A stretch of 63,186 nucleotides of DNA, counting the filler, from Asterionella formosa (taxonomy: Eukaryota), in the NCBI GenBank assembly GCA_002256025.1. It is 15 parts of 15 records of this genome, joined end to end, with 100 filler letters (N's around TTAATTAATTAA, not from the genome) between each part and the next. Parts side by side here need not be neighbours in the genome. Positions count along the whole stretch, not along the records: positions 1 to 16,494 come from NKIB01004854.1; 14 more parts are not named here. The stretch is one strand, 5' to 3'. The position numbers and the translations under genes are program-made. This document shows positions 1-16,594 of this stretch, one piece after another; position 1 is the first letter of the stretch; the number at the start of each line of letters is the position of its first letter. Under the pieces are notes generated by a model. The model ran no database searches, had not been told where the DNA came from, and saw only the letters and a list, made by a program, of their open reading frames with translations.

Positions 1-172
1 GAAGTTGAATGGTGATAGGGTTGGTGGTAGGTCGTTTGTTGATGACAGGTAAATCAACAGTGGCGTAATTGCCAGAACTACCAGAATCAGCAATGAGTGT
101 GACGGGGGGACAAGTGATGGGAGATAACTTTGTGTTAATAGTATTATCGGCAGCAACTTGCTCCCCTCCACA

Positions 173-1261
173 TCAAGCAAGTGGTGAAGGTGGCGGTGAA
201 ACACGGGGTGGCCGGGTAGGACGGGGACCATCACTGAACAGACGGACGCTGCCACCCAGACGTCGATCAAGGGTGGCATTGAGTTGATGGCCAGAAGCTG
301 GATGATTGCAAGTTGCACTGGTATGGTCAGGGTTTTTGGTAAGACCATGAGTCCAACAATAGCCTAATTGGACATTGTTGTAAGTGTATCCAGAAGGGAC
401 AGCACGAGCAGCGGCAGCAATAGCTGGCAATGGGGGAGGGCCACTGGTTTGAATGGCAGCATGGGCACCATGATAACCGGCAGTGGTGGCGGTGGCAAGG
501 CGCAATCGTTCCTTATCAGCATGCATGAAATGTGGGCAAAAATTAACCCATGTACGGTCCAGCTCAGCGCGATCACGCCAAGTTTGAATGCTATGCGAAT
601 ATACACCAGCCTGTTCTAAAGCAGAAAGAGTCAATCGCATGACAGTACTGTCAGAGAAAGGTTCTCCACCAGCATCAGCAATGGCACGAAGATGTTTGAT
701 GCGGATCCATAAATGCTCAATAGGTTCCTCTGGTGTCCAAGCATCGGCCAAGCGCATGCGATTGAGTTCCAAATCATCCGCACTCAATGTTGCATATGTA
801 GATTCTAAGTGAGCAAGTAAGGTCAGAACAGTGATGTCTGCATATCCAAATGTAGCATCTTCCAGAACGTTGTAGTAGGTTGGGTCAATGGCTGTTAGAA
901 TTTGTTGTCGGAGAATTTCACGGATTTGGGAGTAACGGCGGAATGCGTCAAGGGAGGTGTCAAAGAGACGGTTGGCAGCAGTGATTTGGGACTGTGTTGC
1001 AGTAGCACTGTGTGTCGGCTGGATGCCGGGATGTTCGGGCGGTACAAAGGGTTCACCGGCACGTAAGAGATAAGGAGCAGCAGCCATGACAATACCAAGG
1101 AAACCATTGGCACCACCACCACTGGTACAGTGGACAGAGCGAGCATTGGCAAAGAGTTCCTTGCGAAGGCGGGTTACAGTGAAGGCTGTAGGTTTGCCCT
1201 CGATCGGCGTCAAGAGCGGATGAGGGAAGGGGAAAACAGCGGAAACGATTGGAGTCGTCAT
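173..1261 (-). CDS. gag: Copia gag protein (362 aa)
   Basis: Intact ORF with motifs typical of diatom Copia gag; near-identical second copy at 43328-44203. Confidence 0.88.
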   Translation of the reverse strand: MTTPIVSAVFPFPHPLLTPIEGKPTAFTVTRLRKELFANARSVHCTSGGGANGFLGIVMAAAPYLLRAGEPFVPPEHPGIQPTHSATATQSQITAANRLFDTSLDAFRRYSQIREILRQQILTAIDPTYYNVLEDATFGYADITVLTLLAHLESTYATLSADDLELNRMRLADAWTPEEPIEHLWIRIKHLRAIADAGGEPFSDSTVMRLTLSALEQAGVYSHSIQTWRDRAELDRTWVNFCPHFMHADKERLRLATATTAGYHGAHAAIQTSGPPPLPAIAAAARAVPSGYTYNNVQLGYCWTHGLTKNPDHTSATCNHPASGHQLNATLDRRLGGSVRLFSDGPRPTRPPRVSPPPSPLA

Positions 1262-1408
1262 GGTGGAAGAAGGCCTGAGAGACAGGGACAGCGAACGGGC
1301 AAGCGGTGCTGGACGGTTGATTGTTGAGACCAGTGCTGGTTTGCACTGTCGACAAGAGCCGCAACTTCGCAGGTGCGGACAAGAGAGAAAGAACAGATAT
1401 TGTAGTTC

Positions 1409-1579
1409 TGTTGAGGGGAACCTTATCGTGAATAAAGGTGAACTACAATATTATGACTATTCTATTGCTGTTCCAAGTACATCGTTGTTAGCACTCATGC
1501 ATGTACCTAACTAATCTGGTGGCTGCGCCGGTATGGTTCGTGCGGCGCATGTATGGAGCATCATATGCATATATTAACA
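1409..1579 (-). repeat. 5' LTR (~171 bp)
   Basis: Minus strand begins TGTTAA and ends TCAACA (TGTT..AACA termini). Lies upstream of gag; host reading frame resumes right after 1580. Partner LTR is outside the window. Confidence 0.7.
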
Positions 1580-1580
1580 G

Positions 1581-3905
1581 AATATCGCCCCTAATTTTGT
1601 CGCCCCTACGCACCATCATGCTCAAATTGTAAATGAGCATGGTGTACAAGCAGAGTACGCAAGGAATGGACTCTGTCCTTATCATCCAGACATTCAGCTT
1701 CGTAAAAAGAATGTGATTGGAGTTGACGAGACTGTGCGAGACAGCTGCCCTAAATGCGATCGTCTGAATACCCAAGGGCCTACTTCTCCAGCGACTCCAA
1801 TGCCTCAGCAGTCTCCTTCTTTGCCAGCAATCCAAATTCAAACCACTTCAAGTTCGTGTCCGATTGCTGCAATTCTTTCAAATATGCAAATGAATGAACG
1901 GAATGCTGACATTCAAATAAAAGGTTGTTCAGAACTTTGTGACTTGGCTGCGAATAATGACAACAAGGTGACGATTGCTGCAGCAGGAGGTATCACTACG
2001 ATTCTGTCTGCAATGAAGGCTCATTCCTCAAATGCTAATGTACAACACTATGGTTGTGGAGCACTTATGAACTTGGCTGTTAATGACAAGAACAAGGTGA
2101 CGATTGTTGAAGCAGGAGGTATAACTACGATTCTGTCTGCAATGAAGACTCATTCCTCAAATGCTAATGTACAATACGAAGGTTGTGGAGCACTTCAGAA
2201 CTTGGCTTTGAGAAACGACAAGAACAAGGTGACGATTGTTGAAGCAGGAGGTATAACTACGATTCTGTCTGCAATGAAGACTCATTCCTCAAATGCTAAT
2301 GTACAATACTATGGTTGTGGAGCACTTTTTTACTTGGCTGTGAATGACAATAACAAGGTCACGATTGCTGATGCAGGAGGTATCACTACGATTCTGTCTG
2401 CAATGATGACTCATTCCTCCAATGATGATGTGCAACACTTGATGAAGACTAATTCCTCTAATGCTACTGTACAACAGTATGGTTGTAGAGCACTTGGGAC
2501 CTTGGCTACTACTAATAAAAGGATCAAGCTGATAATTGCCGATGCTGGTGGAGAAGATGTAATTAAATCTGCTATTCGAAATCACTCATCCAATGCTGGT
2601 GTCTCTGAAAAAGGTAATGAAGCACTTCGTATCTTTCAACCAGTCTCAACAACATCCAAGAGATCGCATCTTCCTTCCTTAACAACTCCAACACCAAGCA
2701 TTGGTAATTCAACTGATCTCATTTCTGAAGGTCAATCGAAAATGAAGGAAGCAATGTACAATGAGAATTCAAGACCAATTGAGCTTTCTGTTGAATTCAT
2801 TACTTATTGTACAAACAACTTTGATGAAGAGAGAAAACTTGGTCAAGGAGCTTTTGGTGCTGTCTACAAAGGCAAGGATAACAATCGGTATTTTGCTGTT
2901 AAACGCATTCGTTTCAATATTGCTGTTGAGAAAGATAAGGTGAAGGAAGTTACCAAGGGTTTTAAAAGAGAATTGCAGGTGAGCTCATTTGTGTATCAAA
3001 TATTGCATTTTGTTTCAAGTCTTTATGTTTCTCATTCCACTGTCATACTATTTCAGGCATTGAAGAGGTTCCGACACCCCAATATTGTAACTTTGTATGG
3101 CTATCACTTGTCCTCTGGTTCACCTAATCAATACCTTGTGTTTGAGTATGCATCCAAGGGTTCTCTTGATAAATTTTATGAGAATGAAGAAAGCAGAGCA
3201 ACTCTCTCAAGTGAGATCAGACTTCAAATCATGTTCGACATTATTCGTGCCATCCACTTCCTTCATACTGGTACAGAGGACAATCTTGGTCTGTTTCATC
3301 GTGATATCAAGTCAGCTAATATCTGCCTTGATCAGAACTATACTGCCAAGCTGATTGATTATGGTCTAGCCAAATTTGTTCTTGTAGATGACTCCAATGA
3401 AACCAGTGCAAATTCTTTTTCAGTTCAGATCACATCAAATTGTGGAGTGTTTGGGTCACGTGGCTACATATGTCCATGGTATTCTAGGGGAGGTAAAAAA
3501 TTTGAAGCATCATGTGATGTTTACTCATTTGGCATTGTCATGATTGAGCTTGTGACAGGCTGCCTTCAAAATGATAAGACAATGTTGGGAGATTTCTACG
3601 AACAATACTTCCCAGATGAATTTGAAGGAAACATTAATGAGGCATTGGAGTTGGCAATTCTAAAACTGGTAGAAGATTTTGATCCTCTAGCAAAGAATTG
3701 GGATGATGGAATTCTGGCCTCGGTGTGTACATTAGCCATTCGTTGCATTCAGAAAAATCGCAAAAAGAGGCCAACAACTATTAAATTGGTTGAAGAGTTG
3801 GCGTGTTTGGTTGAAGAGTTGGGTCAACTTGTAAGTGCAACAGATCATTATGTTGGATGTGAATCGTCACAATTGATAATTGCCTTAGACAAACATAAGG
3901 TTTAG
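1581..3905 (+). CDS. Zn-ribbon + armadillo-repeat + IRAK/Pelle(RLK)-like Ser/Thr kinase; 5'-truncated by LTR; one intron 2979-3056
   Basis: Frame open from 1581 (CPYHPDIQLRKK...CPKC motif). About five to six 43-44 aa ARM repeats. Kinase motifs GQGAFGAVYKG, AVK, HRDIKSAN, DYGLAK, DVYSFG. Removing the 78-nt GT..AG intron restores FKRELQ|ALKRFRHPNIV. Confidence 0.85.
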   Translation, partial: NIAPNFVAPTHHHAQIVNEHGVQAEYARNGLCPYHPDIQLRKKNVIGVDETVRDSCPKCDRLNTQGPTSPATPMPQQSPSLPAIQIQTTSSSCPIAAILSNMQMNERNADIQIKGCSELCDLAANNDNKVTIAAAGGITTILSAMKAHSSNANVQHYGCGALMNLAVNDKNKVTIVEAGGITTILSAMKTHSSNANVQYEGCGALQNLALRNDKNKVTIVEAGGITTILSAMKTHSSNANVQYYGCGALFYLAVNDNNKVTIADAGGITTILSAMMTHSSNDDVQHLMKTNSSNATVQQYGCRALGTLATTNKRIKLIIADAGGEDVIKSAIRNHSSNAGVSEKGNEALRIFQPVSTTSKRSHLPSLTTPTPSIGNSTDLISEGQSKMKEAMYNENSRPIELSVEFITYCTNNFDEERKLGQGAFGAVYKGKDNNRYFAVKRIRFNIAVEKDKVKEVTKGFKRELQVSSFVYQILHFVSSLYVSHSTVILFQALKRFRHPNIVTLYGYHLSSGSPNQYLVFEYASKGSLDKFYENEESRATLSSEIRLQIMFDIIRAIHFLHTGTEDNLGLFHRDIKSANICLDQNYTAKLIDYGLAKFVLVDDSNETSANSFSVQITSNCGVFGSRGYICPWYSRGGKKFEASCDVYSFGIVMIELVTGCLQNDKTMLGDFYEQYFPDEFEGNINEALELAILKLVEDFDPLAKNWDDGILASVCTLAIRCIQKNRKKRPTTIKLVEELACLVEELGQLVSATDHYVGCESSQLIIALDKHKV

Positions 3906-4072
3906 GGTTAGGGAAAAGGGAAGACGCCTCTAGGCGTCATCCCTATGGAGCATCCAGCCGTTAGGGTAGGGTTAGGGCAAAGGGACGACGCCTCCAGGCA
4001 CCATCCCTATAGAGCATCCAGCCCTTCTAGGGCTGGGCATGTATCTGTAGCACACAGTATGACTAATCCTAT
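3902..4072 (+). repeat. Tandemly duplicated TTAGGG + hairpin module; homologue at 15075-15148
   Basis: Two ~60-bp units, each TTAGGG-like tract + AGGGA-x-GACGCC..GGC(G/A)(T/C)C-A-TCCCT hairpin + GAGCATCCAGCC; third hairpin CCAGCCCT-TCT-AGGGCTGG at 4018-4036. Confidence 0.8.
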
Positions 4073-6169
4073 AGATGGAAACTGGTATGATAATGAATGT
4101 GTTATGGCTGGGTGCATGATCGAAGAACATATAGTAGCTCTAGTAGGCCTGGTACAAACCATTATTTCTAAAAATATAGCTAAATATTTTGTGCGATGAA
4201 TCTCTTGTTGTTACAACCATCACCATGTTGATTGAACTCGGTTGGTTCCATTTGCTTCCCTTCAGTGCCTTGTGTTTTGCGATATAGTATTAGAACCATG
4301 ATCATAGCGCTGATCGGAAACCAAACCGCAAAACAGATGACATCAAACTTTCACTTGTTTGGACGATATTTTTCTTTGGTGATGGCGGAGTCATCACTAC
4401 GTGGGTGCTGGATTCCGGCCGACCTCCTCATTCACTACATGAACCAAAAAAACAACATTGGAAGCAACATGCTATTGACTACGCAAACATTGATGACAGA
4501 CATGAACAAGTGCTACCCTATTGAATTGGATCATCAATTTACTGGATGGCTTGGCTCATTGCTGACATATTTTTTAAAATCTAATTTCAGATTCCAGATC
4601 AGAACCTTCATCAGTCGAACCGTCAACCGGACAGGCAGTCGGCAGTCGGCAGAGAAGGGTGTGTCGAACAGTCATCGATCCCCAGGTCTTCCGTTGAGTC
4701 ACACCCTCGTATTTGATTCAATTCTGATACCGGTAGGCGATAAAAGAATATAGCGTCGATGTGGTAGACAAAGGACAGCGGTGAGGCCGTGAGGCCGTCG
4801 ACAGAACCTCATGGTGTTTTAATTCAACAAGAACAGAAGTGTGTGTGATCTGGTCTGTAAGATATGCATACCACAACGGTACCTGGTACCAGGGTACTGT
4901 ACGGCAATTCGAATGTCGTCCTGACGCTCCCCGCTTTGGTACCGTACCTGGTACAATACAAGTGCAAGTACATACCGTCATGTACAGTACATTCCTGTGT
5001 ACTCTGTTCCTGGGTGGTACATACAAAAAATTCAAACCCCACTGTAATGAAACTTTTTACGACCGTAGTGAAAGCTAATGTACTACCGGTACCTGGTACC
5101 CTGGTAGTAGCAGTCAACTAGCACTGTGTACAAGGTACCAGGTACCTGGTACCAGTAATCTTGCGAAATAGAATGTGTATGGATGTATTACCGAAATATC
5201 TGATAGCTACTATAGGTGCTGATAATAAAATTGCTTACTGGCATGCATGTGTACACCGCCTCTTAATTTACAAGCAGAATCAAAGTGTTGAAGCCAAGGC
5301 ATATCCATCCTGATGCTCTATTGGAACAACTTGATGATGCTGGTGGCAACAAGTGCCAATGCTGAAGGAGGTCTTGGCATGACATCTGCTGCATTGGACT
5401 TGAGCCGCCAATTGAGTGGAATTGCTGAGGAGGTTGTGATTGCAGGAACAATTCATGTCGCTTGCTTTTGCACCTTGATTTTACAGTGGCTGCTATTGAT
5501 TTGAAATGCTGAATATGTAGAATGTAGAAACTCTGCTTATTTGATGGAGGAGAATTGTCATGAAGTTCCCCTGCTAGCTAGCTACTAATTCGAGTGGAAG
5601 GTAGCTATATTGAATGGCTGCCTGGTGGTGAACTTGTTACTATCCTTGCTTCTGAAAAGTCGACATTTGCATAAGGTTGTTGCAACTGACCGTGTTACTA
5701 TGTGTGTCCAAACATGTATAGGATGCATTGTTGACAACGAAAAAACAAAGCCAGTTTTTTCAGTGCCTTGATGTGCCACCTTGCTTGTTAGGCAGCATGC
5801 CACATAGAGAAGCATGATATGTATTTGCCACATTGCAAGTGATAACTTCAGAACAATGTTGGATAGATTGAGTTTATCATTTCCGCCTCTTTCTTCACAA
5901 AAAGTGAAGGCTTTATTCAGTGCCAATGATGAGCGATGCAATGCAAAACCCTTTTTGGAAAAACTTCGACAGGAAATTGGTGCCATCACCACAATTGATT
6001 CTGAAGAAAAAGAAAGCAATGATCAGCGATGCGGAGGACAAAACTTTGGCTTGCTTGTTGCTACATCGTCTCATGATTGTAGAATAATGAAAAATCTAGC
6101 TAGTAGTAGCTAGTATATATATTTTAGTGTTAATGATAGTCAATGTATTGTTATTTCCAGGAAACTTAA

Positions 6170-8580
6170 CTTGTAGAAGTGGATGGGCTGGTGCCCACCA
6201 TTGTTGCAACAATCCGCCCTTCATCATTTGGTTGATTAGCTAGCTATCTGGGAGACTGTTTTGTCAACACCATATGCTTCACTCATAAATGCGGTCAATG
6301 GCTACATGAGCAGTATAGCTATCCAGCTCAAATTAAGTGTGCCACTGCTTCCTACAAGACCTTGCGCCAAGTAGCAACAATAGAGGCACTTTACACGCCC
6401 CCCCCTTTCAACCCTTGTAAATAGCAGCCTAGCATGCTTGCTTTCGAACACCAATTCCCACTTCAAACTCCTGTCAGAGTCCCTGTCAGAGTACAAAGAG
6501 TGTTGTTGGAGTCTTACTAAGCAAGAAGACTGCCGTGGTGGTATTCTGGCTCCACAACCAGCCTGCCATTACACCCACGTCAAATCCAAATTCATTTTCA
6601 TGTTGTGTTTCCTTGTCTTTTAGATTGTTTGCTTATTCACTCTTGGAGCCTGAAATTAAATTCGAAATTTCCATCATTGAAAGTTGGGGTCACAGCTGCA
6701 GGGGCGACCTTGAGACCAACAACTTTAAACCTTTGCCCTGCCTGACATTCTTGTAAGGCGCGCAATTGCGACTTTTACTTGTATTCAACTTTGTCATCCC
6801 CTTTTGCATAGCTGACTTGAGTACCAGAAAAGCCCAGCCACTATTTGCGCCAGCCTGCATCCATCTCTTTCATGTCGCTCTCGTTGTGTTTGCTTCTGCA
6901 GTGAATACAGCCCAAGTAGCTACTACCTCATTCCTCTGCTGACCAGCTAGTCGTCGCTTGTTGTGCTCCACCTGCCGCCTGTTCCCCTTGTGGTACCACC
7001 TGCTTGCATACACCAGCACCAGCACCAGCACCTTGATCGAGATCCACACCAATTTCGTCAATATATACCACCTCACCTTGCTTCTGAATCAGTACTACTA
7101 CTAATAATAGGAATTTTCTCCACTGGAGTGGCAGCTGCTGGAAGGCGACGCACAAATGCGTAGCTATTGCGACCTGACGCGCTCTGTCAGCAGTTTATCT
7201 GGTAATCTGGTAGGTAGCCATGTAGGTGTGGCTCAAAAACGGCCCATAGCAGTGGCTGTGCTTGGCAGCGTCAATGGTACTACTTCACGTGGGAACTGCA
7301 GAAGAATACCTACCTATTTGGAACGCACTACAGTTCTTTACAAAAGCCAATCATCAGTCACACCACCGCACCTCTCTTTGAGCACATGCATACTTACATG
7401 CTCCTCCAATACACAGCCAGCCAGGGCTGCTGCCACCTTGGCATCAGGATATGGAGAAGGAGATCAACATCAATGTAAGTTTCTACTTGCTTTGTGTGCC
7501 GTTTCCAGCAACTGCGGAAATCTATATCATCGCGGGAGCATCCATTCCTTCATGCATGGGCTGGGTTGAGGGATATTTGCGAAGGCTGTGTGTTCCAATT
7601 AATTCAATGATGCCAAGCTTGTTGAACTCACTAACTGACCAAACTTCATCATGCAGGATACAGTATGCCTTTTTTTTTCCATTCTGAGCAAGGATTATTG
7701 GTGGCTTCCAAGAGGAAAAACCCAGTCATTCTCCGGCCCAGTGAGCTGCCATTGGAGCGACATTCCTTCTGTCTCCAGGTGGATTACCAAGTTAAAGTAG
7801 TACACAATACTGTGGCTCGCTCCATTGCACCCATGAGTAATTGATCTGGTGCATCCCTCTCATGATCCTTGCTTGACATTCTTGGACCAACACAGCTGAC
7901 ATAGTATCAGGGTAAAAGGAAGCAAAACGAAGATTGGGCTTCAAGTTTTCCTTCGTCTTCAATCTGAATTGGACACAATCGTCGATCCGGCCGACCATGT
8001 GGAATTGGAAGGCCAGGAACATAGAGAAAGCAACTATCTGGTAGCGGCGGATACTGTCTTTGCATCGTTGAAGTGCAGCAATTGTGTTGGTAAGGCAAAT
8101 TCTTGGGCTTCAAGCAGCGCAAGTGGACGACGTGCTGCTGATGCTTTTCCTTGCTTGCGGAGCAACCCGACCTCCTTTTTCTTTACAGCCTTGCTTGATT
8201 AGTAGCTAGGTCAAGAACAAGCACAGATCTGCCTGGTTGGATTTCCACAGTTGGCTGGTCATGACATTCCAAGTTGAGAGCCGGAGTGGCATGAAGTACT
8301 ATTAGGACAATGCCGCCCTTCTTGTAATAGCTAGCTACTATTCCATTGAGGTTGATCTAGTAGTACCATCTGTTGGATTGTTGTTTTGGCTTGGATTTGG
8401 TTTACTGCACCATAAGTCTTCACAGCCATCCATTTGTACATGTGTTCAGGCTTGATTTCTGCTAGCTGCTCTAGACTTAACTCATAGTCAGTAGCATATT
8501 CTATCCCGTGCATCTTTGTAGGTCGCTCATCATAGCTAATAGAATCCTCCTGGTGTGCGTGTATTGATGGCATTGCAAAA
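6170..8580 (-). pseudogene. Decayed Crypton-type (CryptonS-like) tyrosine recombinase with C-terminal GCR1_C-like domain
   Basis: Fragments in several frames: YKWMAVKTYG, FQFHMVGRIDD, HSLRKYPST, PDAKVAAAL, ARLLFTRVERGGRVK; homologous to 48042-49797 and 51013-51459; many stops and frameshifts; ends approximate. Confidence 0.8.
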
Positions 8581-8785
8581 GTTGGTTCATTCCTATCAAC
8601 ATGGTCTAGATTTGTATTGCTTTATTCAGGAAGCCTTCTATAAATAGTGGTGTGTGGCTGGGGGCAACCATCTACCGGCGGTATTATGGTACCTGGTACC
8701 AGTACCATTCACTTGGTGGTTCCTGGTCCTCTGTGTACCAGGTACCGGTAGTGCATACAACTATATATATATAAATCTTACATAC

Positions 8786-8975
8786 ATGGACACATAAGAT
8801 TGATTTATGATGATGCTATGGTTGAATTTCCCAAGAGATTACAACAATATACTACGCACGACTAATTTGAGTTGAAAATTCAACCAAAAGAAGAGAAAAA
8901 ATTCAACCCCCAGCCAACAATGCAACCGATTTGAAAAGGCAACTTGGGTTGAATTTTAGCTACCAATAACAGTAC
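8786..8975. repeat. Dispersed repeat rich in GGTTGAA/TTCAACC, upstream of the Crypton ORF; inverted copy at 35061-35331
   Basis: ATGGACACATAAGATTGATTTATGATG...GGTTGAATTTCCCAAGAG...GAGTTGAAAATTCAACCAAAAGAAGAG matches the reverse complement of the end of contig 4. Confidence 0.8.
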
Positions 8976-11481
8976 ATACTGTACACCGAAAGTTGGCTTT
9001 GTTCTTATGTGAGGGACAAGGTCCCGGTAAATGAGTACCAGGTACAGGCAATTTAGCCTCAAGAAGAGTATGGTAAGATAAATTCCTCCAATGGGAAGCA
9101 AATGAAAAATGTATCATTGACTTTGAATTTGAATTGATCTGCTGGTCCTGTGGGGGTGGGGGTGCCGCATGTAGCTTCTCGAGGTGGAGTGGTTGCTGAT
9201 GAGAAATTTGCGGAATCTAACCTGCTTGGCAAATCTTATTGTGCCATCTGTCATGGTGATATGGTCATTGGCAAACTTGGCTTGCCAGATGGCAGCCAGG
9301 TATATGTACTATATTCCTTTCACTTTTCGCTGAGGCCAGGCAGAGTCTCCACATGATATTTTATCTTACCCAGAACATTGTATTCTGACTGTCCATATCA
9401 AGTCAGATAACAGGCAGGCAGGCAGGCAGGTCGAAGGAAGTGTATGCAAATTGATACCAAAGTGGCTGGTGCACCACTTTGTTCTTTAGGGGAAGGTACG
9501 CACGTACAGAGTATTCTGTAATGTTGATGACAATAAATAAGTTTTTGAATTGATAATCGAAACATGCGGCCCATCCTTGTTCTTGGATAGGATACTGGCT
9601 GGCTGGCTGATAGGCAGACGGACATGTACTGCTAGTACCTCTCTGTGCTTCCCAATTAAAATCCGCCATTGCCTTGTCCTTCTCTGGCCCGCCAGCAAAT
9701 CGTCGTCGTCACAAATACTTTCTAGAAAAATGCACTTGCCTCCAATGTTTGCTTCCATTAGGGTTAAGCTTATGGTAGGCTTGTGTAGTAAACAGCAGTC
9801 TGAACTTCCAACTTGCAAACAGTCTGAACTTCCAACTCTTGACATGATGCTTTGCTTGCCTACACCCTGCAAAATCATCATTTCCATCTGTATTCTATAA
9901 AGGAATGCATTGCTTGCATTGCTTGTCAAAAAACCGAAAGCTCTGCAATATTGGTAAGGAAATGCAGCCAGTGCTATGAGGAAAAATAGCTATCTGCAAT
10001 CTGCAATCTGCAGTCTGTAATCTACAATCTACATTACGGGCTTTGACAGGCTCGCTTCGATTTATCGCTACATGAGCATGCTGGTTTTCGACGCCAAAGC
10101 CATACCAACATGAATCGCAGTTTAGCAGCATGTAACAAGCACAATATAGCTACCTCATCTGGAAAGTGTGTGAGTCGATTTTGTGACAAAATAAACAAGT
10201 CGCTTCAACTGGAGCAACAATCACTTCTCAGGGAGTGACACCAAATCACAATTACTGAAATCCTGAAATCAAGAGCTATGCATGGCTGCTTTTGGACTGG
10301 AAGCAAATTAAACCACCAACACATCTGAAATCCCTGTGAGTGGATTTCCAGCCAAAGATAGCTAGTACCTAGTTTATGCATAGAATTTGCTTCCCAATGC
10401 CATGTGTGACCATCAGGACCTTCATAAGCATGTTAGTGCGTAGTGTGCAGTGGCCAAATTCGCAAGACAGAGCTTTCTTTTAAAGGGAAAGCTGATGGAT
10501 TGCATCGCACTGGTCCAACAATAATATAACTAGCCAATTTAACTAATTCAACTTTATTGAGTTGTTTCTAGAGCTTGAAAGCAGCTGATTCCGAAGCTTG
10601 CTTCTTGAGCAGGAACTTCGACACCACCAGTGGGGAAAATCAAGAAGGAGGACATTCCTACTATCATCAAGACCCCATTCCTTGGTACAAATGCTTTGTT
10701 ATAAATTCCATACTGGTCCGATGCGCACGCCTCTGAACAACAATCAATCTGTAGGTTGTGGTACAGTGCAGTGCCGGTGGTATTGTTGTATGGTGGTATG
10801 GTGGTATTCTTCTTTGTGTCTTGTACAGAAGGCAGGTGCAGCACCTACACCTAGCGAAGGGAAGATTGAGACTTGGGAGGAGGCATTCTTCGATTCTTGT
10901 TCCTTTTGAGTGTCAGTAAAACTGGTCCGAAAAAGTTGATTGTCAAGATAGGGCATGAGAGACTCAGGCTAGAACAAATAACGGATTCAATAAGCAATCA
11001 CAAAAGAGACTTTGACTTTGACTTTGCCACTTCGCTCTGCTCTGTTGCTTGCTTGCTTCCTTTTCATTGACCGGAAGAAGCAATACAACCAGCTGAGGGA
11101 AACCACCGAATATCAAATACAAATAAACGTAGTTTAATAACAAATAAGACAGGATCAATATCGAACGAATCTATTTTAGTTATATGAGATAGTATCGTCA
11201 TTTCCACAAAAGGTAACTCATCAACCATCAGTTGGATCGCTCACAAAACGGCAACAAGAGAAGACCGGGAACATTCGAATATACATGAATGACACCTGTA
11301 ACATCGCCCATACCACCTCTCAAATCGATACTGATATGTCGAGGAGGACCCAGCAGCTTTGATGAATCCATGTGTGCCATGTTGGTGAAATGTGGGTTTG
11401 ATGATGACATGTTGATTGTGGTGAAATCCGAGATGATTTGTTGTTGTTGTTCTCGACAGTGTGGTCCCCTTGTACCTGGTA

Positions 11482-12519
11482 CCAGTTAAAAACTGCTGTG
11501 ACCCACTAAAAAAATTTGGAACCGCTGTGACCCACTGAACAGGAGAAAAACACGGTTTGACCCTACCAAATGCAGATTTGTTAATTTTAAAACTTCGACC
11601 CCAATCCTGAGAATGTGCGGTTTAAGGCTATGCCATTAGATATAAGTTTATAGCAATTGGTTTCTCCTAAAATATTGGTTGAAAAGTGCGATCGACGAAA
11701 ATATTGCCAGAACACGGATTACCCCATGTTTTGAGGACTCACTGTTATATGATATACGCAGCTTAATACAAAAATATCGCCTTCGATTTATTTGTTGTCT
11801 GATTCCTGTTATATCCTTCTTATCCCTGTCACTTGATAGTGCCTAAATAACTTGAGCATCATAAAATGAGCGCCCTTTCACCCATACACTTGTAAGGAAA
11901 TGTGTACATACCAGTATAGAATTTTTAGCTCATAATATTCATCCAAACTATGGCAAAAAAATCGACTGTGCCTTCGGGCAAGGCGGCTCAGTCTAATAAC
12001 AGCACAAACAAAGCCAGGATGATTGAACATTGCCTATTAAACATCTCTACAAATATGGAAGTGCTGAAAGCGAACAAAAATGGAAAACTACCATATGGCG
12101 CAATTTCTCGTGCTGTGCACGATGTACAAGAACTTGTCCCATGGGTGACTACACAGAAAGTGAAATACTTTCTAAGGAAAATGATATAAATACTGGATGC
12201 GAAAATTCTTAAAAATAATTTTGCGAAAACCAAACGGGGTAATCCGTGATAATAATGGTATATAAAATTATATACAATTATAGATAAAAATTTAAGTACT
12301 GCTGTGACCCATTACCGGCAAATTTTGTCCACATAAAATGGTTCGTATCTCAGTACCAGGTACCTCGACCTTCAATGAGAATACCGACTGATCCACAACC
12401 TGCTGACTCCTTTGGTTAACAAGACCTGGAAGTTTGATTCTCGCAAGGCATGGAATAGGTTTAGTCGAACTAATCAAACGAATAGGAGAACTCAGTGGGT
12501 CACAGCAGTTCTTTACTGG
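11482..12519 (+). mobile_element. Non-autonomous Tc1/mariner-pogo-like element (MITE/deletion derivative), TA target duplication
   Basis: TA|CCAGTTAAAAACTGCTGTGACCCACT ... AGTGGGTCACAGCAGTTCTTTACTGG|TA (26-bp TIR, 2 mismatches). Subterminal GCTGTGACCCA copies at ~11524 and ~12301. Internal ORF 11950-12189 (NGKLPYGAI..PWVT) resembles a transposase N-terminus. Confidence 0.85.
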
Positions 12520-12659
12520 TACCAGGTACCAGAGTACCGTATAGCTATTGTTGTGTCTATGTATGATATACTGGTAAATGATGCGTCCTATATGTACTGA
12601 TTCTACGATGATAATAATTGTGTTTCTAGTGACTACATTCATAGTAGTCAATATGGAAT

Positions 12660-12860
12660 CCTACGTTTAGGTAACTTTGGGAAAATAAAACCCAAACGTA
12701 ATGCGTTTGGGTAACTTATTGGAATATGGGCACGGAATCCCCTAAACGTAATGCGTTTGCGTTGGGTTTTTCACTCCCGTTGTTTTTAGCATCGTTTTTT
12801 AGGGTTACCGAAACCAAAACACTGTTTGGTTTGCGTTTTGGTCCACCGTTAGCAACGGCC
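12660..12860. mobile_element. Probable single end of a PIF/Harbinger-like element with palindromic subterminal repeats
   Basis: AAACGTAATGCGTTTG repeated (one copy forms a CCCAAACG/CGTTTGGG hairpin); ends GTTAGCAACGGCC|TCA, whose reverse complement resembles the GGTCGTTCTTATC terminus at 41075. Confidence 0.35.
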
Positions 12861-12893
12861 TCATGCATGAGGAATGAATGAGTTGCATCTTTT

Positions 12894-12929
12894 ACGTAGA
12901 ATTCTACGACAAGTGGTAGAGAAACTATT
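12894..12929 (+). repeat. Direct repeat, left copy (partner 15318-15353), flanking the LRR gene
   Basis: 31/36 identity, last 21 nt (ACAAGTGGTAGAGAAACTATT) identical. Confidence 0.9.
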
Positions 12930-13047
12930 TTGGCAGCACGAGTAAAAGGAGTTTTTTCAACACAAAAAACACTTTTCACTCGAGCAAGGAAAAAGTCGCT
13001 CGTCAACACAATAGACAACTTTCATTACATTCAAGAGAACATTGACA

Positions 13048-15087
13048 ATGCTAAGAGCATTTGGTCGAAAGAAGATAGAAACAGAATTTGAGAAATATGT
13101 CAAACGGTTGAAAGCGAATGATTCCAGTTTGACTACATTTGATCTCGATAAAAATATCATTGGTGTTGATGGAGCCAAGGCCATTGCAGAGGCACTCAAG
13201 GTCAATACTGTCTTGACTACACTTTATCTCGATAGTAATTCAATTGTCGTTGATGGAGCCAAGGCCATTGCAGTGGCTCTCAAGGTCAATACTTTCTTGA
13301 CTACACTTGATCTCGGAAGTAATTCAATTGCTCTTGACGGAGCCAAGGCCATTGCAGAGGCTCTCAAGGTCAAAAGTGTCTTGACTTCACTTAATCTCAG
13401 AGACAATTCAATTGGTGTTGACGGAGCCGAGGCCATTGCAGTGGCTCTCAAGGTCAATACTGTCTTGACTTCACTTAATCTCGGAAGTAATTCAATTGGT
13501 GTTGACGGAGCCGAGGCCATTGCAGAGGCTCTCAAGTTCAATACTGTCTTGACTTCACTTAATCTCGGAAGTAATTCAATTGGTGAAGAACTAGAAAATG
13601 AAATTCAAAAACAGCTTGATGACAAGAGGAATGATCAACCATCATTCAGGGGTGATTTTCAGACAAATGCACTCGTAGAGGAAATGATTGAAAAGGATAG
13701 AACAGGTCATCATATTACTGATTATGATGGTTTGCCAAAGGTTATTACAAATCAAAAAGTCTGTTGGCCATTCATTGAATGTAAGCATAAGGGTTGGGAA
13801 CCAAATCAGTCAAGAAGAATCATGTCATATTCAAAAGTGTGGGTAGATTCAAAATGTTGCAGTGAACCAACAGACATACACAAAGAAACATTAGTTGTTC
13901 TTTCAAGTCCCAACTTCAGCCAACCCTCACATATTCTTCTTAAGGCATATCGATCTGTGATGAATTTATCAATATCAAATGATTTTGTTGATACTGACAC
14001 CTTTCTCAGGTCGATTACCATGACCAGGTATGGCATATTGCTCTGCAATAGATCAATTCCAGAAAACCCTGGCAGATCTGGTATTGAAATGTTTTTTCCA
14101 AAATGGATCTCAAGATTTTGGAACAAAGGTATTGATAATCTTTACTGGCGACATGAATCCTTCAAAATAAATTCAAGAAACGGCAGTGAACGTGAAGCTG
14201 TCCTGTACTTCAAAATTGGGGCTTTATGCTACAAGATTCCATTTTGTAAATATTTGTATGGCCATGCTCTTATATATGGTACAGGTGGCACTAAGAAGGA
14301 TATTGTAATGGGAATGGGACTTCTGCATGAAGCAGGGAATGAGCTTTGTATTGCAGAAGCCTTCTTTGAACTAGGTGTCCTTTATGAGCATGGTGTGATG
14401 GGAAAAGATGAACAATGCATAGCCAAAGACTATGTGATGGCTCAAGGCTTTTATGAAGACTCGATAAAAGCTGCCTTTGAAAATATTCATGATGAAAATA
14501 AATCCGTTTGGATTCCACCAATTGGAATAATGAATCAACTGCTTCATGTTGACAGCGTACATTTGCAAGAAGATTCAGTACATAATGATGCAGGAATGCA
14601 TTATTCTTGGATCATTCTAGGTCATTCTTTCCTGTTTGCTACTGCAGCAACCCTTGCAAGCGGCTCTCAACCTTTTCACTACTCACTTCTACTGTTTTTT
14701 ATTCCCTTACTTGGCATTCTCCTGGCATATTATTCCTATTTAGATAGCTATTTTGCATTGGGAGTAATATCAAGAAACCAAGAAGATGTCGATTTAATGG
14801 TGCAAAGAAAATTTCATGCATACACACTTATCTTGGAACAAGCACAACATCATGGCAGCAACGATGATGATTTAGTTTTTTTATCCAATGAACAAAACCG
14901 TTGTATAAAAGAAAAAGAAGATGTCATTTGCAGATTTGTGAACCATCATATGTTGGCATATTGGCAAATTTTTATCTTTTTTTTTATAGGGTGCATCTGG
15001 GCTCTACTTCTTGTGAATGAGATTTATTCACGTTACTTTGAGTGCTCTTACTGGTTTTATACATGTAAGCTTCCTCCCTATGAGTAG
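13048..15087 (+). CDS. RI-like/NLRC3-like LRR + Sel1-like repeats + C-terminal 3-TM domain protein
   Basis: Single ORF from ATG 13048. Six 28-aa LRRs (LKVNTVLTSLNLGSNSIGVDGAKAIAEA). Sel1-like YGHALIYGTGG / FELGVLYEHG. Three hydrophobic helices at the C-terminus. Confidence 0.88.
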   Translation: MLRAFGRKKIETEFEKYVKRLKANDSSLTTFDLDKNIIGVDGAKAIAEALKVNTVLTTLYLDSNSIVVDGAKAIAVALKVNTFLTTLDLGSNSIALDGAKAIAEALKVKSVLTSLNLRDNSIGVDGAEAIAVALKVNTVLTSLNLGSNSIGVDGAEAIAEALKFNTVLTSLNLGSNSIGEELENEIQKQLDDKRNDQPSFRGDFQTNALVEEMIEKDRTGHHITDYDGLPKVITNQKVCWPFIECKHKGWEPNQSRRIMSYSKVWVDSKCCSEPTDIHKETLVVLSSPNFSQPSHILLKAYRSVMNLSISNDFVDTDTFLRSITMTRYGILLCNRSIPENPGRSGIEMFFPKWISRFWNKGIDNLYWRHESFKINSRNGSEREAVLYFKIGALCYKIPFCKYLYGHALIYGTGGTKKDIVMGMGLLHEAGNELCIAEAFFELGVLYEHGVMGKDEQCIAKDYVMAQGFYEDSIKAAFENIHDENKSVWIPPIGIMNQLLHVDSVHLQEDSVHNDAGMHYSWIILGHSFLFATAATLASGSQPFHYSLLLFFIPLLGILLAYYSYLDSYFALGVISRNQEDVDLMVQRKFHAYTLILEQAQHHGSNDDDLVFLSNEQNRCIKEKEDVICRFVNHHMLAYWQIFIFFFIGCIWALLLVNEIYSRYFECSYWFYTCKLPPYE

Positions 15088-15317
15088 GACCAAGCCCTTC
15101 CAGTGCTGGGTGTGATGACCATGAAGCACATGGTACGCATAATCCTATGAAAGTCATGGAATAGTAAGGGTCAGGGTTACTTTAATAGCTACTGTTGCAA
15201 GTTTGTAGTAGTATAAGACACCAGTTTTTTAATTGAATTGCAGCAAGTGTTGTTCACTATGGATGTGTTGTCTAAAACCCTAAAACACAATGATGATGAT
15301 CTCAACCTAACCCTAAC

Positions 15318-15353
15318 ATGTACAATTCAGCAACAAGTGGTAGAGAAACTATT
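15318..15353 (+). repeat. Direct repeat, right copy, immediately after an AACCTAACCCTAAC tract
   Basis: Matches 12894-12929; preceded by C-strand telomere-like repeats at 15304-15317. Confidence 0.9.
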
Positions 15354-16443
15354 AAGGTTGTGGCCCTGCAGTTACGCATTGCCAGGTCTGTTTTTTTTCA
15401 AAATAATTTTTTGATGTACTTCAATCTACACATTACGGACAACTAATAAAGTAGACCAATTTGCATATGCTTAGATACAGTCATTCCTCGACTTGAGAGT
15501 ATGATCTAGTACCGGTATATCCAGATATGGTAAGGACATCATTTCTGGAGTGAAGTGGCAGTTATCCCTCTTGGAATCATAACTATCCAAAAGCTTTAAA
15601 AAAAATCTACAAGGGATATCTGCCACTTTTCTGCAGAAGTTAAATCCTGACATTATAGGGTACACAGCTATCTATTTCATTCTTCATGAAACCCCGTAGA
15701 TGTAGAGCAATTCTCCTACAAAAAGTCGACCTGATCGGCTTTTCAACAGTCGCCAAAATATTGGAATCAAAATTTGTGTATGCAAAATGTTCTTGTCTAC
15801 TTAGAGTCTTGCGTAGGTATGTTTCGTTGAATAATTCTCAGTCCAAAAAGATTCCAGGGTAAGTTCCGGCGTCACTACCGGTACACATATTCTGATTGGT
15901 TGAATTGAATATACTCACCTGCTCCAGATTCGCTGAAGTATCCCGGTCTTATAAAATCTCGCTCGCCAGCCACACTTGAACTATACGTATTAGGTGTACT
16001 GAAAAAGCAGTACTGGTACTACTGGTAGTTTCATCTTGTCTTCCATCATGATGAACCAAGATTATGTAATACCTAGTACTCCTAGTACCAGTAGGTCTAT
16101 GGTGGTGCAATGTGGTGCAGCGACAAAATGACGTCAGCAAGGAGTGCCTTACCGGTAGTTAAAAATTCATTACCGGTAGTAACCTATATACATGATACAA
16201 AATGCTTGCAATACTTTATTAGTACCGGTATGTCCCATTACATGTATGTACCGGGTGGCCTACGGCCGTTGGCTACTACAAAATACATATCTTATATGAA
16301 TCTGATCGTGATCCTATGTAGAAAATATCACTACGGTAGTGCAGGCCGTAGCACGGATTTTGTAAGTGGGTAGTCTGATGGTGCAATTTTGGTGTCTCTA
16401 AGTAATAGTGGTGCAATCGGTGGTGCAATTGTGGTGCAAATGA

Positions 16444-16494
16444 TAGGGTTAGGGTTAGGGTTAGGGTTAGGGTTAGGGTTAGGGTTAGGGTTAG
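16444..16494 (+). repeat. Telomere, (TTAGGG)n
   Basis: TAGGG + 7 perfect TTAGGG + TTAG running to the contig end, G-strand pointing outward; GGTGCAA-rich telomere-adjacent sequence at 16379-16440. Confidence 0.93.
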
Positions 16495-16594
16495 NNNNNN
16501 NNNNNNNNNNNNNNNNNNNNNNNNNNNNNNNNNNNNNNTTAATTAATTAANNNNNNNNNNNNNNNNNNNNNNNNNNNNNNNNNNNNNNNNNNNN
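16495..16594. other. Artificial contig linker (first of 14)
   Basis: N44-TTAATTAATTAA-N44 (stops in all six frames); others start at 17623, 18750, 35332, 36459, 37586, 38713, 39840, 40974, 42101, 43228, 44354, 60935, 62061. Confidence 0.98.

Follow-up and report, generated by a model that had tools for sequence, protein, structure and literature searches.

A repeat module linked to telomere tracts behind two repeat-protein genes near a chromosome end of Asterionella formosa

Given the findings below, we lean toward reading a short repeated module, M, as the trace of former chromosome ends within a patchwork subtelomere of the freshwater pennate diatom Asterionella formosa. M lies behind an ARM-repeat kinase gene (gene 1) and, as a diverged copy (M'), at the end of an LRR gene (gene 2). 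It is present in many copies and is constantly linked to telomere tracts, and both genes form junctions with these elements. M is best explained as part of the telomere-associated repeat set of the species, not as a gene signal. An earlier note on this DNA had proposed a shuffled gene family with a shared 3' cis-element; relatives of both genes support the shuffling of domains, but the module is not gene-specific.

The contig and its two long genes

The window, that is, the whole stretch of DNA that was analysed (63,186 nucleotides), holds 14 spacers (28 runs of N) and is consequently a string of contigs. The filler beyond 16494 consists of 44 N, a 12-nt spacer and another 44 N, and directly before it a repeat scan finds a (TTAGGG)8.5 array at 16444-16494, with its G-strand on the + strand; thus, 16494 is the end of a contig with a true telomere. 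Gene 1 starts 14.9 kb from this array, in agreement with the proposal that the genes lie within 15 kb of a telomere, and both genes, on the + strand, point at the telomere as proposed. There are six stop-to-stop ORFs of at least 150 aa in 1-16494, and the two longest, 1578-3905 (+) and 13015-15087 (+), are the ones in which Pfam identifies ARM and kinase domains and LRRs, respectively, as had been claimed. The features of the contig are collected in Table 1.

Table 1. Features of the telomere-bearing contig, in window positions
Feature	Position	Strand	Description
425-aa ORF	173..1450	-	Part of a repeated element, possibly Gag-like
Gene 1	1578..3905	+	N-terminal Cys motif, ~5 ARM repeats, linker, RLK/Pelle-like Ser/Thr kinase, without TM segment
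Tandem ARM units, 129 nt	1962..2439	+	TRF: 3.7 copies, 89 % matches
Intron of gene 1, 78 nt	2979..3056	+	GT..AG, in frame, stop-free
TTAGGGTTAGGG tract	3902..3913	+	Holds stop codon of gene 1
U1	3914..3960	+	Right-truncated M copy with 6-bp stem hairpin; 64-nt direct repeat, 88 %
Second telomere-like tract	3961..3977	+	Telomere-repeat scan (3966-3977)
M	3978..4103	+	Full module copy, hairpin 4017-4035; 95 % identical to L001
N	4104..4199	+	Different repeat joined to M; matched by short ORFs of other contigs
D7 copy 1	12896..12929	+	Upstream of gene 2; 34-nt direct repeat, 88 %, spacing 2424 nt
Gene 2	13048..15087	+	LRR cap, 6 RNI-type LRRs, Sel1-like helical region, hydrophobic helices
RNI-type LRRs of gene 2	13129-13632	+	Six 28-aa units; LRR_6 E=7.7e-25 (Pfam)
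Sel1-like helical region of gene 2	~14190-14450	+	Family-level Sel1 matches; AF2 secondary structure
Hydrophobic helices of gene 2	~14600-15030	+	Hydropathy
M'	15074..15148	+	Diverged M copy; overlaps last 4 codons and stop of gene 2
Degenerate C-strand (inverted) telomere-like repeats	15276..15318	+	From sequence; 15305-15316 on minus strand
D7 copy 2	15320..15353	+	34-nt direct repeat, 88 %; cut off by E
E	15349..16089	+	Repeat of high copy number, short terminal inverted repeats; identity to L001 77 % over 827 nt

The surroundings of the genes had been described as dead transposons. Several stretches of the contig do have further copies, both elsewhere in the window and in many contigs of the sequencing runs, but none of 19 intergenic ORFs of the contig matches a Pfam family. 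No Pfam family was found in the 425-aa ORF either; 23-1048 recurs at 96 % identity on another window contig, and the ORF falls in an Atlas cluster of diatom hypothetical proteins (score 0.98). In a cluster related to that one, 21 % of the members have a zf-CCHC domain, which is no more than a lead. Between M' and the true telomere lie E, whose places 15551 and 15827 are covered by 107-112 contigs of run X1 and 13-33 of run X2, and telomere-like tracts in both orientations.

Gene 1 is best explained as a cytosolic protein with ARM repeats and an RLK/Pelle-type kinase. Its Pfam matches (Arm, E=1.7e-14; ARM_LRRK2, 6.6e-14; Pkinase, 5.9e-35; PK_Tyr_Ser-Thr, 1.3e-26) and its catalytic motifs (GQGAFG, HRD and DYG; it is an RD kinase whose Gly loop and HRD motif are intact) bear out the description of an ARM gene with a kinase, probably of IRAK/Pelle-like type. 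By sequence comparison, the named proteins that match the kinase domain best are RLK-Pelle proteins of plants (26-33 % identity). Hydropathy peaks at 1.45. The ARM units measure 43 aa by unit alignment, with ~42 aa expected for the class. The first in-frame ATG is codon 75 (nt 1800); a relative, P0003, has Met at its start where gene 1 has Gln. The residues of the intron are absent from another relative, P0004, and matches to RNA contigs begin at 3055/3056.

Gene 2 is best explained as a membrane-anchored protein with RNI-type LRRs and a Sel1-like region. The LRRs agree with the RNI type, which has 28-aa repeats around an LxxLxLxxN core, and they appear as beta-alpha units in the AF2 secondary structure, which comes from a low-confidence model. 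The earlier assignment of LRR plus Sel1 holds firmly for the LRRs; Sel1 reaches only E=0.12 in the gene 2 protein, below the cut-off, with E<=0.01 in 10 of the 15 proteins of its family (best 5.5e-07) and an Atlas lead of 0.79. Similarly, two of the three supposed transmembrane segments are strongly hydrophobic (residues 552-577 and 645-672) and the third is weaker. Near-identical internal DNA repeats had been noted in both genes, and they are present as 129-nt units at 89 % in gene 1 and as 5.4 copies of an 84-nt unit at 88 % matches in gene 2. Their variation is less concentrated than had been supposed: 16 of the 28 LRR codons vary among units 1-5, and it is only at positions 5, 7, 8 and 12 that three residues occur. 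The ratio pN/pS among the LRR units is 1.37, from 10 non-independent pairs.

The module, its copies and its junctions with the genes

Homology between gene 1 and the tails of its paralogues reaches 3902, and ~4 tail codons are missing. At that point the gene sequence is joined directly to a G-strand telomere tract, which has the same orientation as the terminal array and supplies the TAG stop. Behind the tract come U1, a fresh telomere tract and the full copy of M, in that order. P0004, which has a kinase 70 % identical to that of gene 1, a different N-terminus and its intron removed, ends in translated TTAGGG repeats ~17 codons earlier than gene 1.

Outside the window, the sole DNA copy of M seen is L001, the 1 locus given by one metagenome pattern scan; M is 95 % identical to it over 117 nt, and ~110 nt after the M of L001 there is one TTAGGG and then E. 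In addition, translated M was found in 12 short ORFs from other environmental contigs (seven of the 20 matches of a protein search, plus five cluster members), and 3972-4103 is matched at E=9e-34 by a profile built on 11 translated copies. Directly to the left of the same M start, 10 of these 12 have a translated telomere tract, and in the other two the junction lies inside M; L001 included, 13 further copies follow or border a telomere tract. The telomere units at the head of the copies vary from 1 to 4, and the copies differ by 5-25 %. On the right side, 9 of the 12 continue as L001 does, P0140 having M, ~100 nt, four telomere repeats and then part of E, and the differing continuations among copies set the right border of M. 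Behind the M of gene 1 itself lies N, to which 10 short ORFs from other contigs correspond (4083/4104-4196, 64-100 % identity), each with different upstream sequence.

The residues upstream of the 12 translated copies represent at least eight contexts. M is not special to the two genes: it follows a telomeric tract in these 12 other contigs, behind at least eight different upstream sequences, and the idea that it is their dedicated 3' module is not supported. What lies upstream consists, though, of short translated stubs, which could also be gene ends. The contigs that cover places 3995 and 4000 in M number 23-26 in X1 and 6-7 in X11. M is present in poly(A) RNA contigs; consequently, it must at the least be co-transcribed, and a function in transcripts is conceivable. 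No Rfam family matches M. An identification as a Helitron 3' end was rejected, since the similarity runs ~55 nt past the hairpin and a shared CTRR end is absent.

As for M', the claim that both genes end in the same hairpin module is right about the ~74 nt of 3' similarity and wrong about the hairpin. The local score of 43 between 4003-4072 and 15074-15148 was reached by 0 of 500 dinucleotide shuffles (mean 18.9, sd 2.5), and M' is the best match of M among 708 control windows of the 63-kb window, the next best scoring 27. The stem, however, which is a perfect 8 bp in the gene 1 module, is broken in the gene 2 copy, and the fold of M' is no better than that of shuffles (z = -0.12). M' is not detected by the M protein profile, and comparison of the flanks of the two genes, upstream and further downstream, revealed no similarity. 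Telomere-like repeats had been reported beside both modules, and they are there, on the + strand behind gene 1 and on the minus strand beside M' (Table 1). To the left of M' there is no telomere tract; this, its likeness of only ~73 % to M and its escape from the M protein profile weigh against the reading of M as a mark of former chromosome ends.

Homology of gene 2 to its paralogues stops at 15072, two bases short of M'. The gene is without ~20 codons of the paralogue tail, takes its last 4 codons and stop from M', and no match to the conserved tail lies further on in the contig. Among the 15 family members, five with an identical C-terminal block end in M'-derived residues and four more keep a longer, conserved tail. 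The other C-termini of the paralogues show that the module replaced the ancestral tail.

It is very improbable that assembly created the junctions by chimeric joining of the genes to telomere repeats and M. The window is a short-contig assembly in which repeats break contigs at 3931-3944 and 15170-15193, and the mosaic relatives described below could themselves be assembly chimeras. However, contigs of other studies hold the same junctions. At 3902, an RNA contig of X9 covers 3547-3944, 43 letters past the junction, with 5 other letters; a DNA contig of X2 covers 3547-3931 with 0 other letters and goes 30 letters past it, one below the bridging rule. At 15074, where DNA and RNA contigs cover 13557-15193 of the gene 2 region, DNA contigs of X2 and RNA contigs of X9 and X11 bridge the gene into M', reaching 15170-15193 with 1-6 other letters. 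Furthermore, the join of telomere tract to M is repeated in L001 and the 12 translated copies.

Origin of the junctions

The order of events and the copying mechanism at the junctions we infer as follows. Terminal breakage or recombination in the subtelomere would have cut each gene a few codons before its natural stop; a telomere would then have been added, and next M-containing telomere-associated DNA. The canonical order is a short TTAGGG tract, M and ~100 nt, another TTAGGG tract, E and the telomere. If so, the end of gene 1 would be an old chromosome end that later came to lie under ~12 kb of newer terminal DNA, and the gene families would shuffle and duplicate as a side effect of lying in an unstable region. 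The M DNA could have been copied from another chromosome end after a break, as in break-induced copying, or from an RNA with terminal CCCUAA repeats, with the telomere as primer. Against such breakage, it should be noted that both junctions lie 4-20 codons from the natural stop, which is unlikely if breaks are random; selection, ascertainment of ORFs that are still open, or a link to gene 3' ends is consequently needed.

Alternatively, M could be an ordinary SINE- or MITE-like interspersed element with a telomere-like head, inserted at or near gene 3' ends without any chromosome breakage. Its many copies, its defined left start and right end, the variable number of head units, and the wealth of other repeats in the region (N, E and a repeat upstream of gene 2) are what such an element would show. 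However, a target-site duplication was not seen, telomere tracts stand on either side of the canonical copy, and U1 followed by a new telomere tract resembles serial terminal additions. In addition, the tails of gene 2 paralogues are not found behind M' in the contig, nor is the long C-terminal extension of P0008 found anywhere in the window. Given these observations, insertion of this kind is unlikely.

A further alternative is that M is the DNA copy of a small RNA ending in CCCUAA repeats, reverse-transcribed onto chromosome ends. The RNA might belong to a telomere-specific retroposon or, most boldly, be the 5' part of the diatom telomerase RNA, with telomerase overrunning its template boundary. 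The minus strand of M ends in a hairpin, ~9 nt and CCCUAA repeats, which is how a template bounded by a helix is laid out (PMC8287931); that paper mentions no diatom telomerase RNA, the word "diatom" occurring in it 0 times. The left junction constant in 10 of 12 copies, the truncated U1 with its renewed telomere repeats, and the canonical long form between telomere tracts fit as well. On the other hand, an Rfam match is absent, the z-scores of the fold (-1.2 and -2.5) are modest, Pfam shows no reverse transcriptase among the 19 intergenic ORFs nearby, and break-induced copying gives the same layout. The differences of M copies would, moreover, call for many or old sources. We regard a copied RNA as quite improbable. 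Equally speculative is the wider proposal that an unrecognised telomere-specific copying of such an RNA, possibly the 5' part of telomerase RNA, builds ends and in so doing caps and fixes 3'-truncated, recombined ARM and LRR sensor-effector genes; if it were true, subtelomeres would be a nursery for a receptor-like repertoire.

Known systems offer both likenesses and differences. Patchwork subtelomeres in which interstitial telomere tracts mark the block borders, and in which telomere healing has truncated genes, have examples in humans and in the repair of chromosome ends of Plasmodium falciparum (PMC5550746). As in these two, G-strand tracts oriented like the terminal array separate blocks here, coding sequence runs into telomere repeats, and the region holds multigene families. 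Unlike in them, a specific element of ~130-240 nt stands behind the tract in many contexts, always with one constant type of junction, and the truncations leave almost complete ORFs that are found in RNA contigs. Endonuclease-deficient Penelope-like elements such as Athena and Coprina have a telomere-targeting mechanism. These elements (PMC8557442) and MoTeR of Magnaporthe, a telomere-targeted retroelement (PMC7367193), share with M a fixed telomere junction, truncated copies interleaved with short tracts, and, as is probable for M, a location at chromosome ends, but M is very short and no reverse-transcriptase ORF was found among the 19 intergenic ORFs. If M is only a telomere-associated repeat, then the locus is a tidy example, in a new lineage, of known subtelomere dynamics. 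Even so, M, a defined telomere-linked element with a constant junction, is a usable probe for all chromosome ends and old ends in long-read assemblies, and the locus allows one to ask whether truncated gene variants that are expressed can arise by telomere healing.

Modular gene families and receptor-like systems

Comparison of their sequences supports the view that both genes belong to very large, modular, transcribed families. The domains found in relatives of the ARM part are kinase, ART, caspase-like, C2, TAZ, U-box, RING, ankyrin and DUF4062, with TIR_2 borderline, and the linker and kinase unit is found behind ARM repeats, a different N-terminus or another kinase. Relatives show mosaics in which blocks of 100 % identity stand beside diverged ones, and 0 of 14 relatives of the C-terminal part of gene 2 have LRRs.

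On the reading of the earlier note, M would be a functional 3' cis-element of mobile or convertible sensor-effector cassettes in an innate-immune-like repertoire; it might, for instance, be a block of homology at which gene conversion stops on the 3' side, or a regulatory element of the 3' UTR. Both genes do have M or M' at their ends, only a few codons away from the natural stops, M' is carried as 3' UTR in RNA contigs, the relatives combine many domains, and gene 2 is flanked by the direct repeat D7. LRR and ARM stretches are also joined in contigs of X2 and X11 (side 49-50), at a likeness threshold of 85 %, a level prone to repeats. Nevertheless, M'-derived ends occur in only 5 of the 15 gene 2 family members, translated M or telomere repeats in 0 of the 72 kinase-paralogue tails listed, and a tail of this kind, among the first 136 proteins scanned, in P0004 only. 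The many upstream stubs behind which M stands, the hairpin that is not conserved, and the dissimilar flanks of the two genes also argue against a cis-element, which we consider improbable.

The VSG cassettes of Trypanosoma brucei are telomere-proximal, point at the telomere and have a conserved 3' block. Genes 1 and 2 are likewise telomere-proximal and telomere-directed, with a common 3' block, but a VSG-like cassette was rejected on the same counts for family members and kinase tails and on the many non-homologous contexts of the block.

To our knowledge, the innate-immune receptor repertoire of diatoms is undescribed, and little work exists on their subtelomeres and telomerase RNA; in the open-access literature, no paper was found on diatom subtelomeric receptor families or diatom telomerase RNA. 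Candidates are offered here in the form of ARM-kinase and LRR-Sel1-TM genes from very large families in lake metatranscriptome contigs. An NLR or STAND receptor was rejected for both proteins, as neither has a central NACHT or NB-ARC domain in Pfam at E<=0.01. Fungal NLRs are known for highly similar repeats. For the candidate receptors of Ectocarpus, ROCO-LRR and NB-ARC-TPR proteins, exon shuffling is described (PMC3341825; PMC11378527). Like the fungal and Ectocarpus proteins, the diatom ones have highly similar repeat units that vary on the predicted binding face, join sensors to effectors in many combinations and show rapid turnover, but ROC-COR, NACHT and NB-ARC modules are absent, and the LRR and ARM arrays are continuous ORFs, unlike the one exon per repeat of Ectocarpus. 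Gene 1 resembles plant RLK/Pelle proteins and animal IRAK in its RD kinase, for which plant RLK-Pelle proteins are the best named matches. It differs from them in being without a TM segment or ectodomain, in having DYG for DFG, and in its ARM repeats, which stand in for the extracellular LRR or the death domain.

Domain make-up and relatives of the two genes

As the earlier note had assumed, the first contig (1-16494) terminates in a true telomere, (TTAGGG)8.5, in the correct orientation. The closest named proteins to those encoded here come from Fragilaria crotonensis (kinases, 42-50 % identity) and also from Nitzschia and Bacillariaceae, and the recorded taxa of a protein cluster containing a repeat ORF of the window are mostly Bacillariophyta. 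The 63-kb window is a chain of contigs, many about 1 kb long, and each of its 14 spacers (28 N runs) is a 12-nt all-frame stop set between two blocks of 44 N; features that cross them are not real.

Positions of the two genes and of neighbouring features in the window
Feature	Position	Strand	Description
425-aa ORF region	23-1048		
Copy of 425-aa ORF region	43328-44353	opposite orientation	other contig, 96 % identical
Gene 1	1578-3905	+	ARM repeats and RLK/Pelle-like kinase
Cys/His motif	1660-1770		CPxH ... CPxC, gene 1 N-terminus
Gene 1 intron	2979-3056		GT..AG, 78 nt
U1	3914-3960		right-truncated M, 47 nt
M	3978-4103		module 3' of gene 1
N	4104-4199		repeat
GGTACC-rich motifs	4877-5159; 8687-8756; 11463-12539		direct and inverted repeats
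45-nt arms	11463; 12494		986 nt apart
Upstream repeat of gene 2	12690-12860		high-copy, paired short palindromes (D8)
D7	12896-12929; 15320-15353		34-nt direct repeat
Gene 2	13048-15087	+	LRRs, Sel1-like region, hydrophobic helices
M'	15074-15148		diverged M at the gene 2 end
E	15349-16089; within 1-1212 of L001		repeat
Telomere	16444-16494	G-rich strand on +	end of first contig
First spacer	16495-16594		13 others elsewhere

Gene 1 encodes about five ARM repeats (129-nt units, 89 % alike), followed by a linker rich in Ser/Thr and by a kinase domain (Pkinase, E=5.9e-35) that retains an intact Gly loop and HRD and carries DYG in place of DFG. Its intron, in frame by chance, was placed from residues missing from P0004, a relative, and from RNA contig matches that start at 3055/3056. 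Because the start Met of P0003, an 83-87 % identical relative, is Gln in gene 1 and the earliest in-frame ATG is codon 75, this copy may start elsewhere, draw on an exon further upstream or be in decay. The N-terminal Cys/His motif, which P0003 also has, matches no Pfam family and may represent a zinc-binding cap, as yet unnamed, of the gene 1 family. RNA contigs of paralogues switch to other 5' sequence near 1634.

Gene 2 opens with an LRR cap, followed by six RNI-type LRRs of 28 aa (LRR_6, E=7.7e-25; 84-nt units, 88 % alike) and a helical region; of the three hydrophobic helices near the C-terminus, two are strong and the third is weaker. No hydrophobic segment was seen by hydropathy in gene 1, and Pfam gave no NACHT or NB-ARC domain in either protein. 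Although the ARM and kinase domains and the LRRs of the earlier note stand, its Sel1 repeats and three transmembrane segments are weaker: the window copy matches the Sel1 profile at only E=0.12 and one of the three helices is the weaker one. Across the family, the helical region nevertheless appears to be Sel1-like, with profile matches at E<=0.01 in 10 of the 15 members. The Atlas lead for this gene is also Sel1, a weak one (score 0.79), and its AF2 model is poor (mean pLDDT 54.8, pTM 0.32).

The note had further described near-identical DNA repeats in which variation is concentrated at a few codons. The near-identity holds, but the concentration is less marked, since 16 of 28 codons vary among LRR units 1-5, the most variable being positions 5, 7, 8 and 12 of the LxxLxLxxNxIg part. 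The pN/pS of these units is 1.37, from 10 non-independent pairs. Such variation is weak evidence, consistent with relaxed or diversifying change on the predicted binding face. The core of the earlier observation is sound, with two sub-claims weaker than stated, so that it is partly confirmed; its interpretation is partly supported.

The portion of that interpretation that is borne out is the shuffled family. Relatives of the ARM part (35-46 % identity, from metagenomes) combine it with ADP-ribosyltransferase, caspase-like peptidase C14, C2, TAZ, U-box, RING, ankyrin, DUF4062 or an N-terminal kinase, and also with TIR_2, a match at cut-off. The linker and kinase unit occurs behind ARM repeats (gene 1, P0003), behind the quite different N-terminus of P0004, which begins like the gene 2 LRR cap, and behind a second kinase domain (P0172, P0184, P0192). 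About 42 of 95 kinase matches are at least 57 % identical to the gene 1 kinase, and LRRs are absent from all 14 relatives of the C-terminal 500 residues of gene 2. The families of both genes are large and modular, and shuffling is therefore supported. The 14 gene 2 relatives have blocks of 100 % identity adjoining blocks of about 50 %, a mosaic that could reflect gene conversion among paralogues or their chimeric assembly. In P0172, P0184 and P0192, the kinase units are in tandem in a single ORF, the end of one kinase reading directly into the linker and the start of the next. No other member of either family was found on the remaining contigs of the window.

Window sequence was also found in runs labelled as algae, freshwater and lake-water metagenomes and metatranscriptomes. 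Together with the closest named proteins, these labels identify the source as a freshwater diatom. All four runs (X1; X2, DNA; X9, RNA; X11, poly(A) RNA) consist of contigs, so their counts are no measure of copy number or expression level and show neither strand nor transcript ends, and stretches of 5400-10400 that lack RNA cover carry no information. Place 13331 in the LRR part is covered by 110 contigs of X1 and 32 of X11, the unique part of gene 2 by just 2-4 contigs, and place 3107 in the kinase gene region by 45 contigs of X1 and 13 of X2. In contigs of X2 and X11, an LRR unit runs into the beginning of the ARM region; the sides of this joint are 49-50 letters, at a likeness threshold of 85 % where repeats may mislead, and joints at this likeness with sides of fewer than 30 letters were disregarded.

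Where the genes meet M and M'

Gene 1 takes its stop codon, a TAG, from the first telomere repeat. Its tail is homologous to those of the paralogues P0170, P0190, P0187 and P0191 until nt 3902, where the telomere tract starts, leaving about 4 codons missing. Other paralogues (P0008, P0020, P0026, P0219) continue with a RING-like region and one more domain, an extension found nowhere in the window; six kinase paralogues (P0162-P0164, P0169, P0171 and P0178) carry short 'TDHIE-stop' ends, which may be telomere junctions too. P0004 runs out into translated telomere repeats about 17 codons before the junction of gene 1, and this is a second, independent junction. It was the sole case of such an ending in the first 136 proteins scanned, with none among the 72 kinase-paralogue tails listed. 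At gene 2, homology to paralogues ceases at 15072, and M' contains the final four codons and the stop. A conserved Cys-rich tail of about 20 residues, common to four gene 2 paralogues, is absent from contig 1-16494. Residues derived from M' end 5 of the 15 gene 2 family members, all with one identical C-terminal block.

The gene 1 junction is spanned by an X9 RNA contig (3547-3944) and, with no difference and one letter below the bridging rule, by an X2 DNA contig (3547-3931), and the gene 2 junction at 15074 is bridged by X2 DNA, X9 RNA and X11 RNA contigs with 1-6 other letters. Since the same joins occur in contigs of X2, X9 and X11, they are not assembly errors, and an artefact is extremely improbable.

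The earlier note had both genes ending in the same hairpin module. The similarity itself is real, but the shared hairpin is not. Gapped local alignment of 4003-4072 with 15074-15148 gives a score of 43 over 74 positions, reached by 0 of 500 shuffles, and when M is compared with 708 control windows taken from both strands of the whole window, M' is its best match and the runner-up scores 27. Gapped alignment was needed, as blastn-short at E<=10 did not report the match, and a protein profile of translated M did not detect M'. The hairpin is perfect in the gene 1 copy alone; the stem is broken in M', whose fold is no better than that of shuffles, and a conserved RNA hairpin is rejected for M'. 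No further similarity was found between the flanks of the two genes.

Copies of M on other contigs

The gene 1 end carries, in order, TTAGGGTTAGGG, U1, another telomere-like tract and the complete M. A pattern scan of metagenome DNA for M found one contig, L001, whose sequence opens within the repeat and matches 3984-4100 at 95 % identity. To the right, L001 has about 110 nt unlike the window, one TTAGGG, and then E (77 % over 827 nt), which in the window sits between M' and the true telomere. When the open frame across M (3912-4199) was translated and searched against 1.84 billion representative proteins, there were 20 matches: seven are short spurious ORFs of translated M, ten represent the repeat N, and three (P0144, P0154, P0155) look unrelated, P0144 and P0154 being repetitive proteins. 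With five further cluster members, the seven give 12 translated M copies on other contigs. A telomere tract of 1-4 translated units lies immediately left of one and the same M start in 10 of these; the remaining two have a single context in common, and their tract meets M at a more internal point. Upstream of the tract the residues differ, with at least eight contexts. On the right, nine copies are like L001, one runs into N as in the window, and two continue otherwise; in P0138, the repeat found just upstream of gene 2 reappears, inverted, behind M, and in P0140, M is followed by about 100 nt, four telomere repeats and part of E. At places 3995 and 4000 in M there are 23-26 contigs from X1 and 6-7 from X11, most of them with the perfect-stem form of the first hairpin. 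A 24-mer of M had 0 matches in viral contig and genome contig collections, and a Helitron 3' end was rejected for M, the similarity extending about 55 nt past the hairpin with no common CTRR terminus.

On the evidence of L001, the translated copies and the run contigs, M is a multi-copy element whose constant feature is its position after a telomeric tract and whose usual form continues into another tract and E. Subtelomeric multigene families, healed ends, and telomere-linked repeats and retroelements are already familiar; what is new here is the lineage and an element, M, with a constant junction. Repeat sensors joined to varied effectors are described for brown algae in PMC3341825. In the open-access literature, no paper was found on diatom subtelomeric receptor-like families or diatom telomerase RNA; the text of PMC8287931 does not mention diatoms, and PMC8329260 describes Nitzschia telomeres only.

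A possible history of the chromosome end

These results are probably, if only by a modest measure, best explained by a patchwork subtelomere in which M belongs to a telomere-associated repeat set and the tract and M behind gene 1 represent an old chromosome end. In this model, M would have been placed behind a telomere tract by break-induced copying from another end or, alternatively, by telomere-primed reverse transcription of an RNA ending in CCCUAA. About 12 kb, comprising gene 2 and M' as well as repeats, E and the present telomere, would later have covered the old end. Between M' and E there are telomere-like tracts of either orientation; these, the 34-nt repeat of the gene 2 upstream region that is cut off by E, and the repeat behind M in P0138 are compatible with repeated terminal rearrangement.

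Plain insertion of an interspersed element seems unlikely: it leaves the missing gene tails and the presence of U1 against it. A telomere-specific retroposon, or read-through of telomerase RNA, would fit the minus strand of M, where a hairpin is followed by about 9 nt and then, at the end, by telomere-complementary repeats; however, no Rfam family came near its gathering score and no reverse transcriptase was found among 19 intergenic ORFs, making this reading very improbable. Both gene-M junctions lie only 4-20 codons from natural stops, which disfavours a purely accidental history and calls for selection, ascertainment of open ORFs or a link to gene ends. A genuine link of this kind, the cis-element reading of the earlier note, would account for that proximity, and we regard it as quite unlikely.

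Several other repeats surround the genes. E is bounded by short inverted repeats, contains a palindrome, occurs in more than 100 contigs of X1, and could be a MITE or the terminal subtelomeric repeat of the species. The ten short ORFs matching N, on other contigs, are 64-100 % identical; each has its own upstream sequence, and the left border is sharp, at about 4104. The GGTACC-rich repeats are probably ends of non-autonomous DNA transposons. Finally, the copy of the 425-aa ORF region on another contig, at 96 % identity, points to recent activity of this repeat, which may be retroelement Gag-like.
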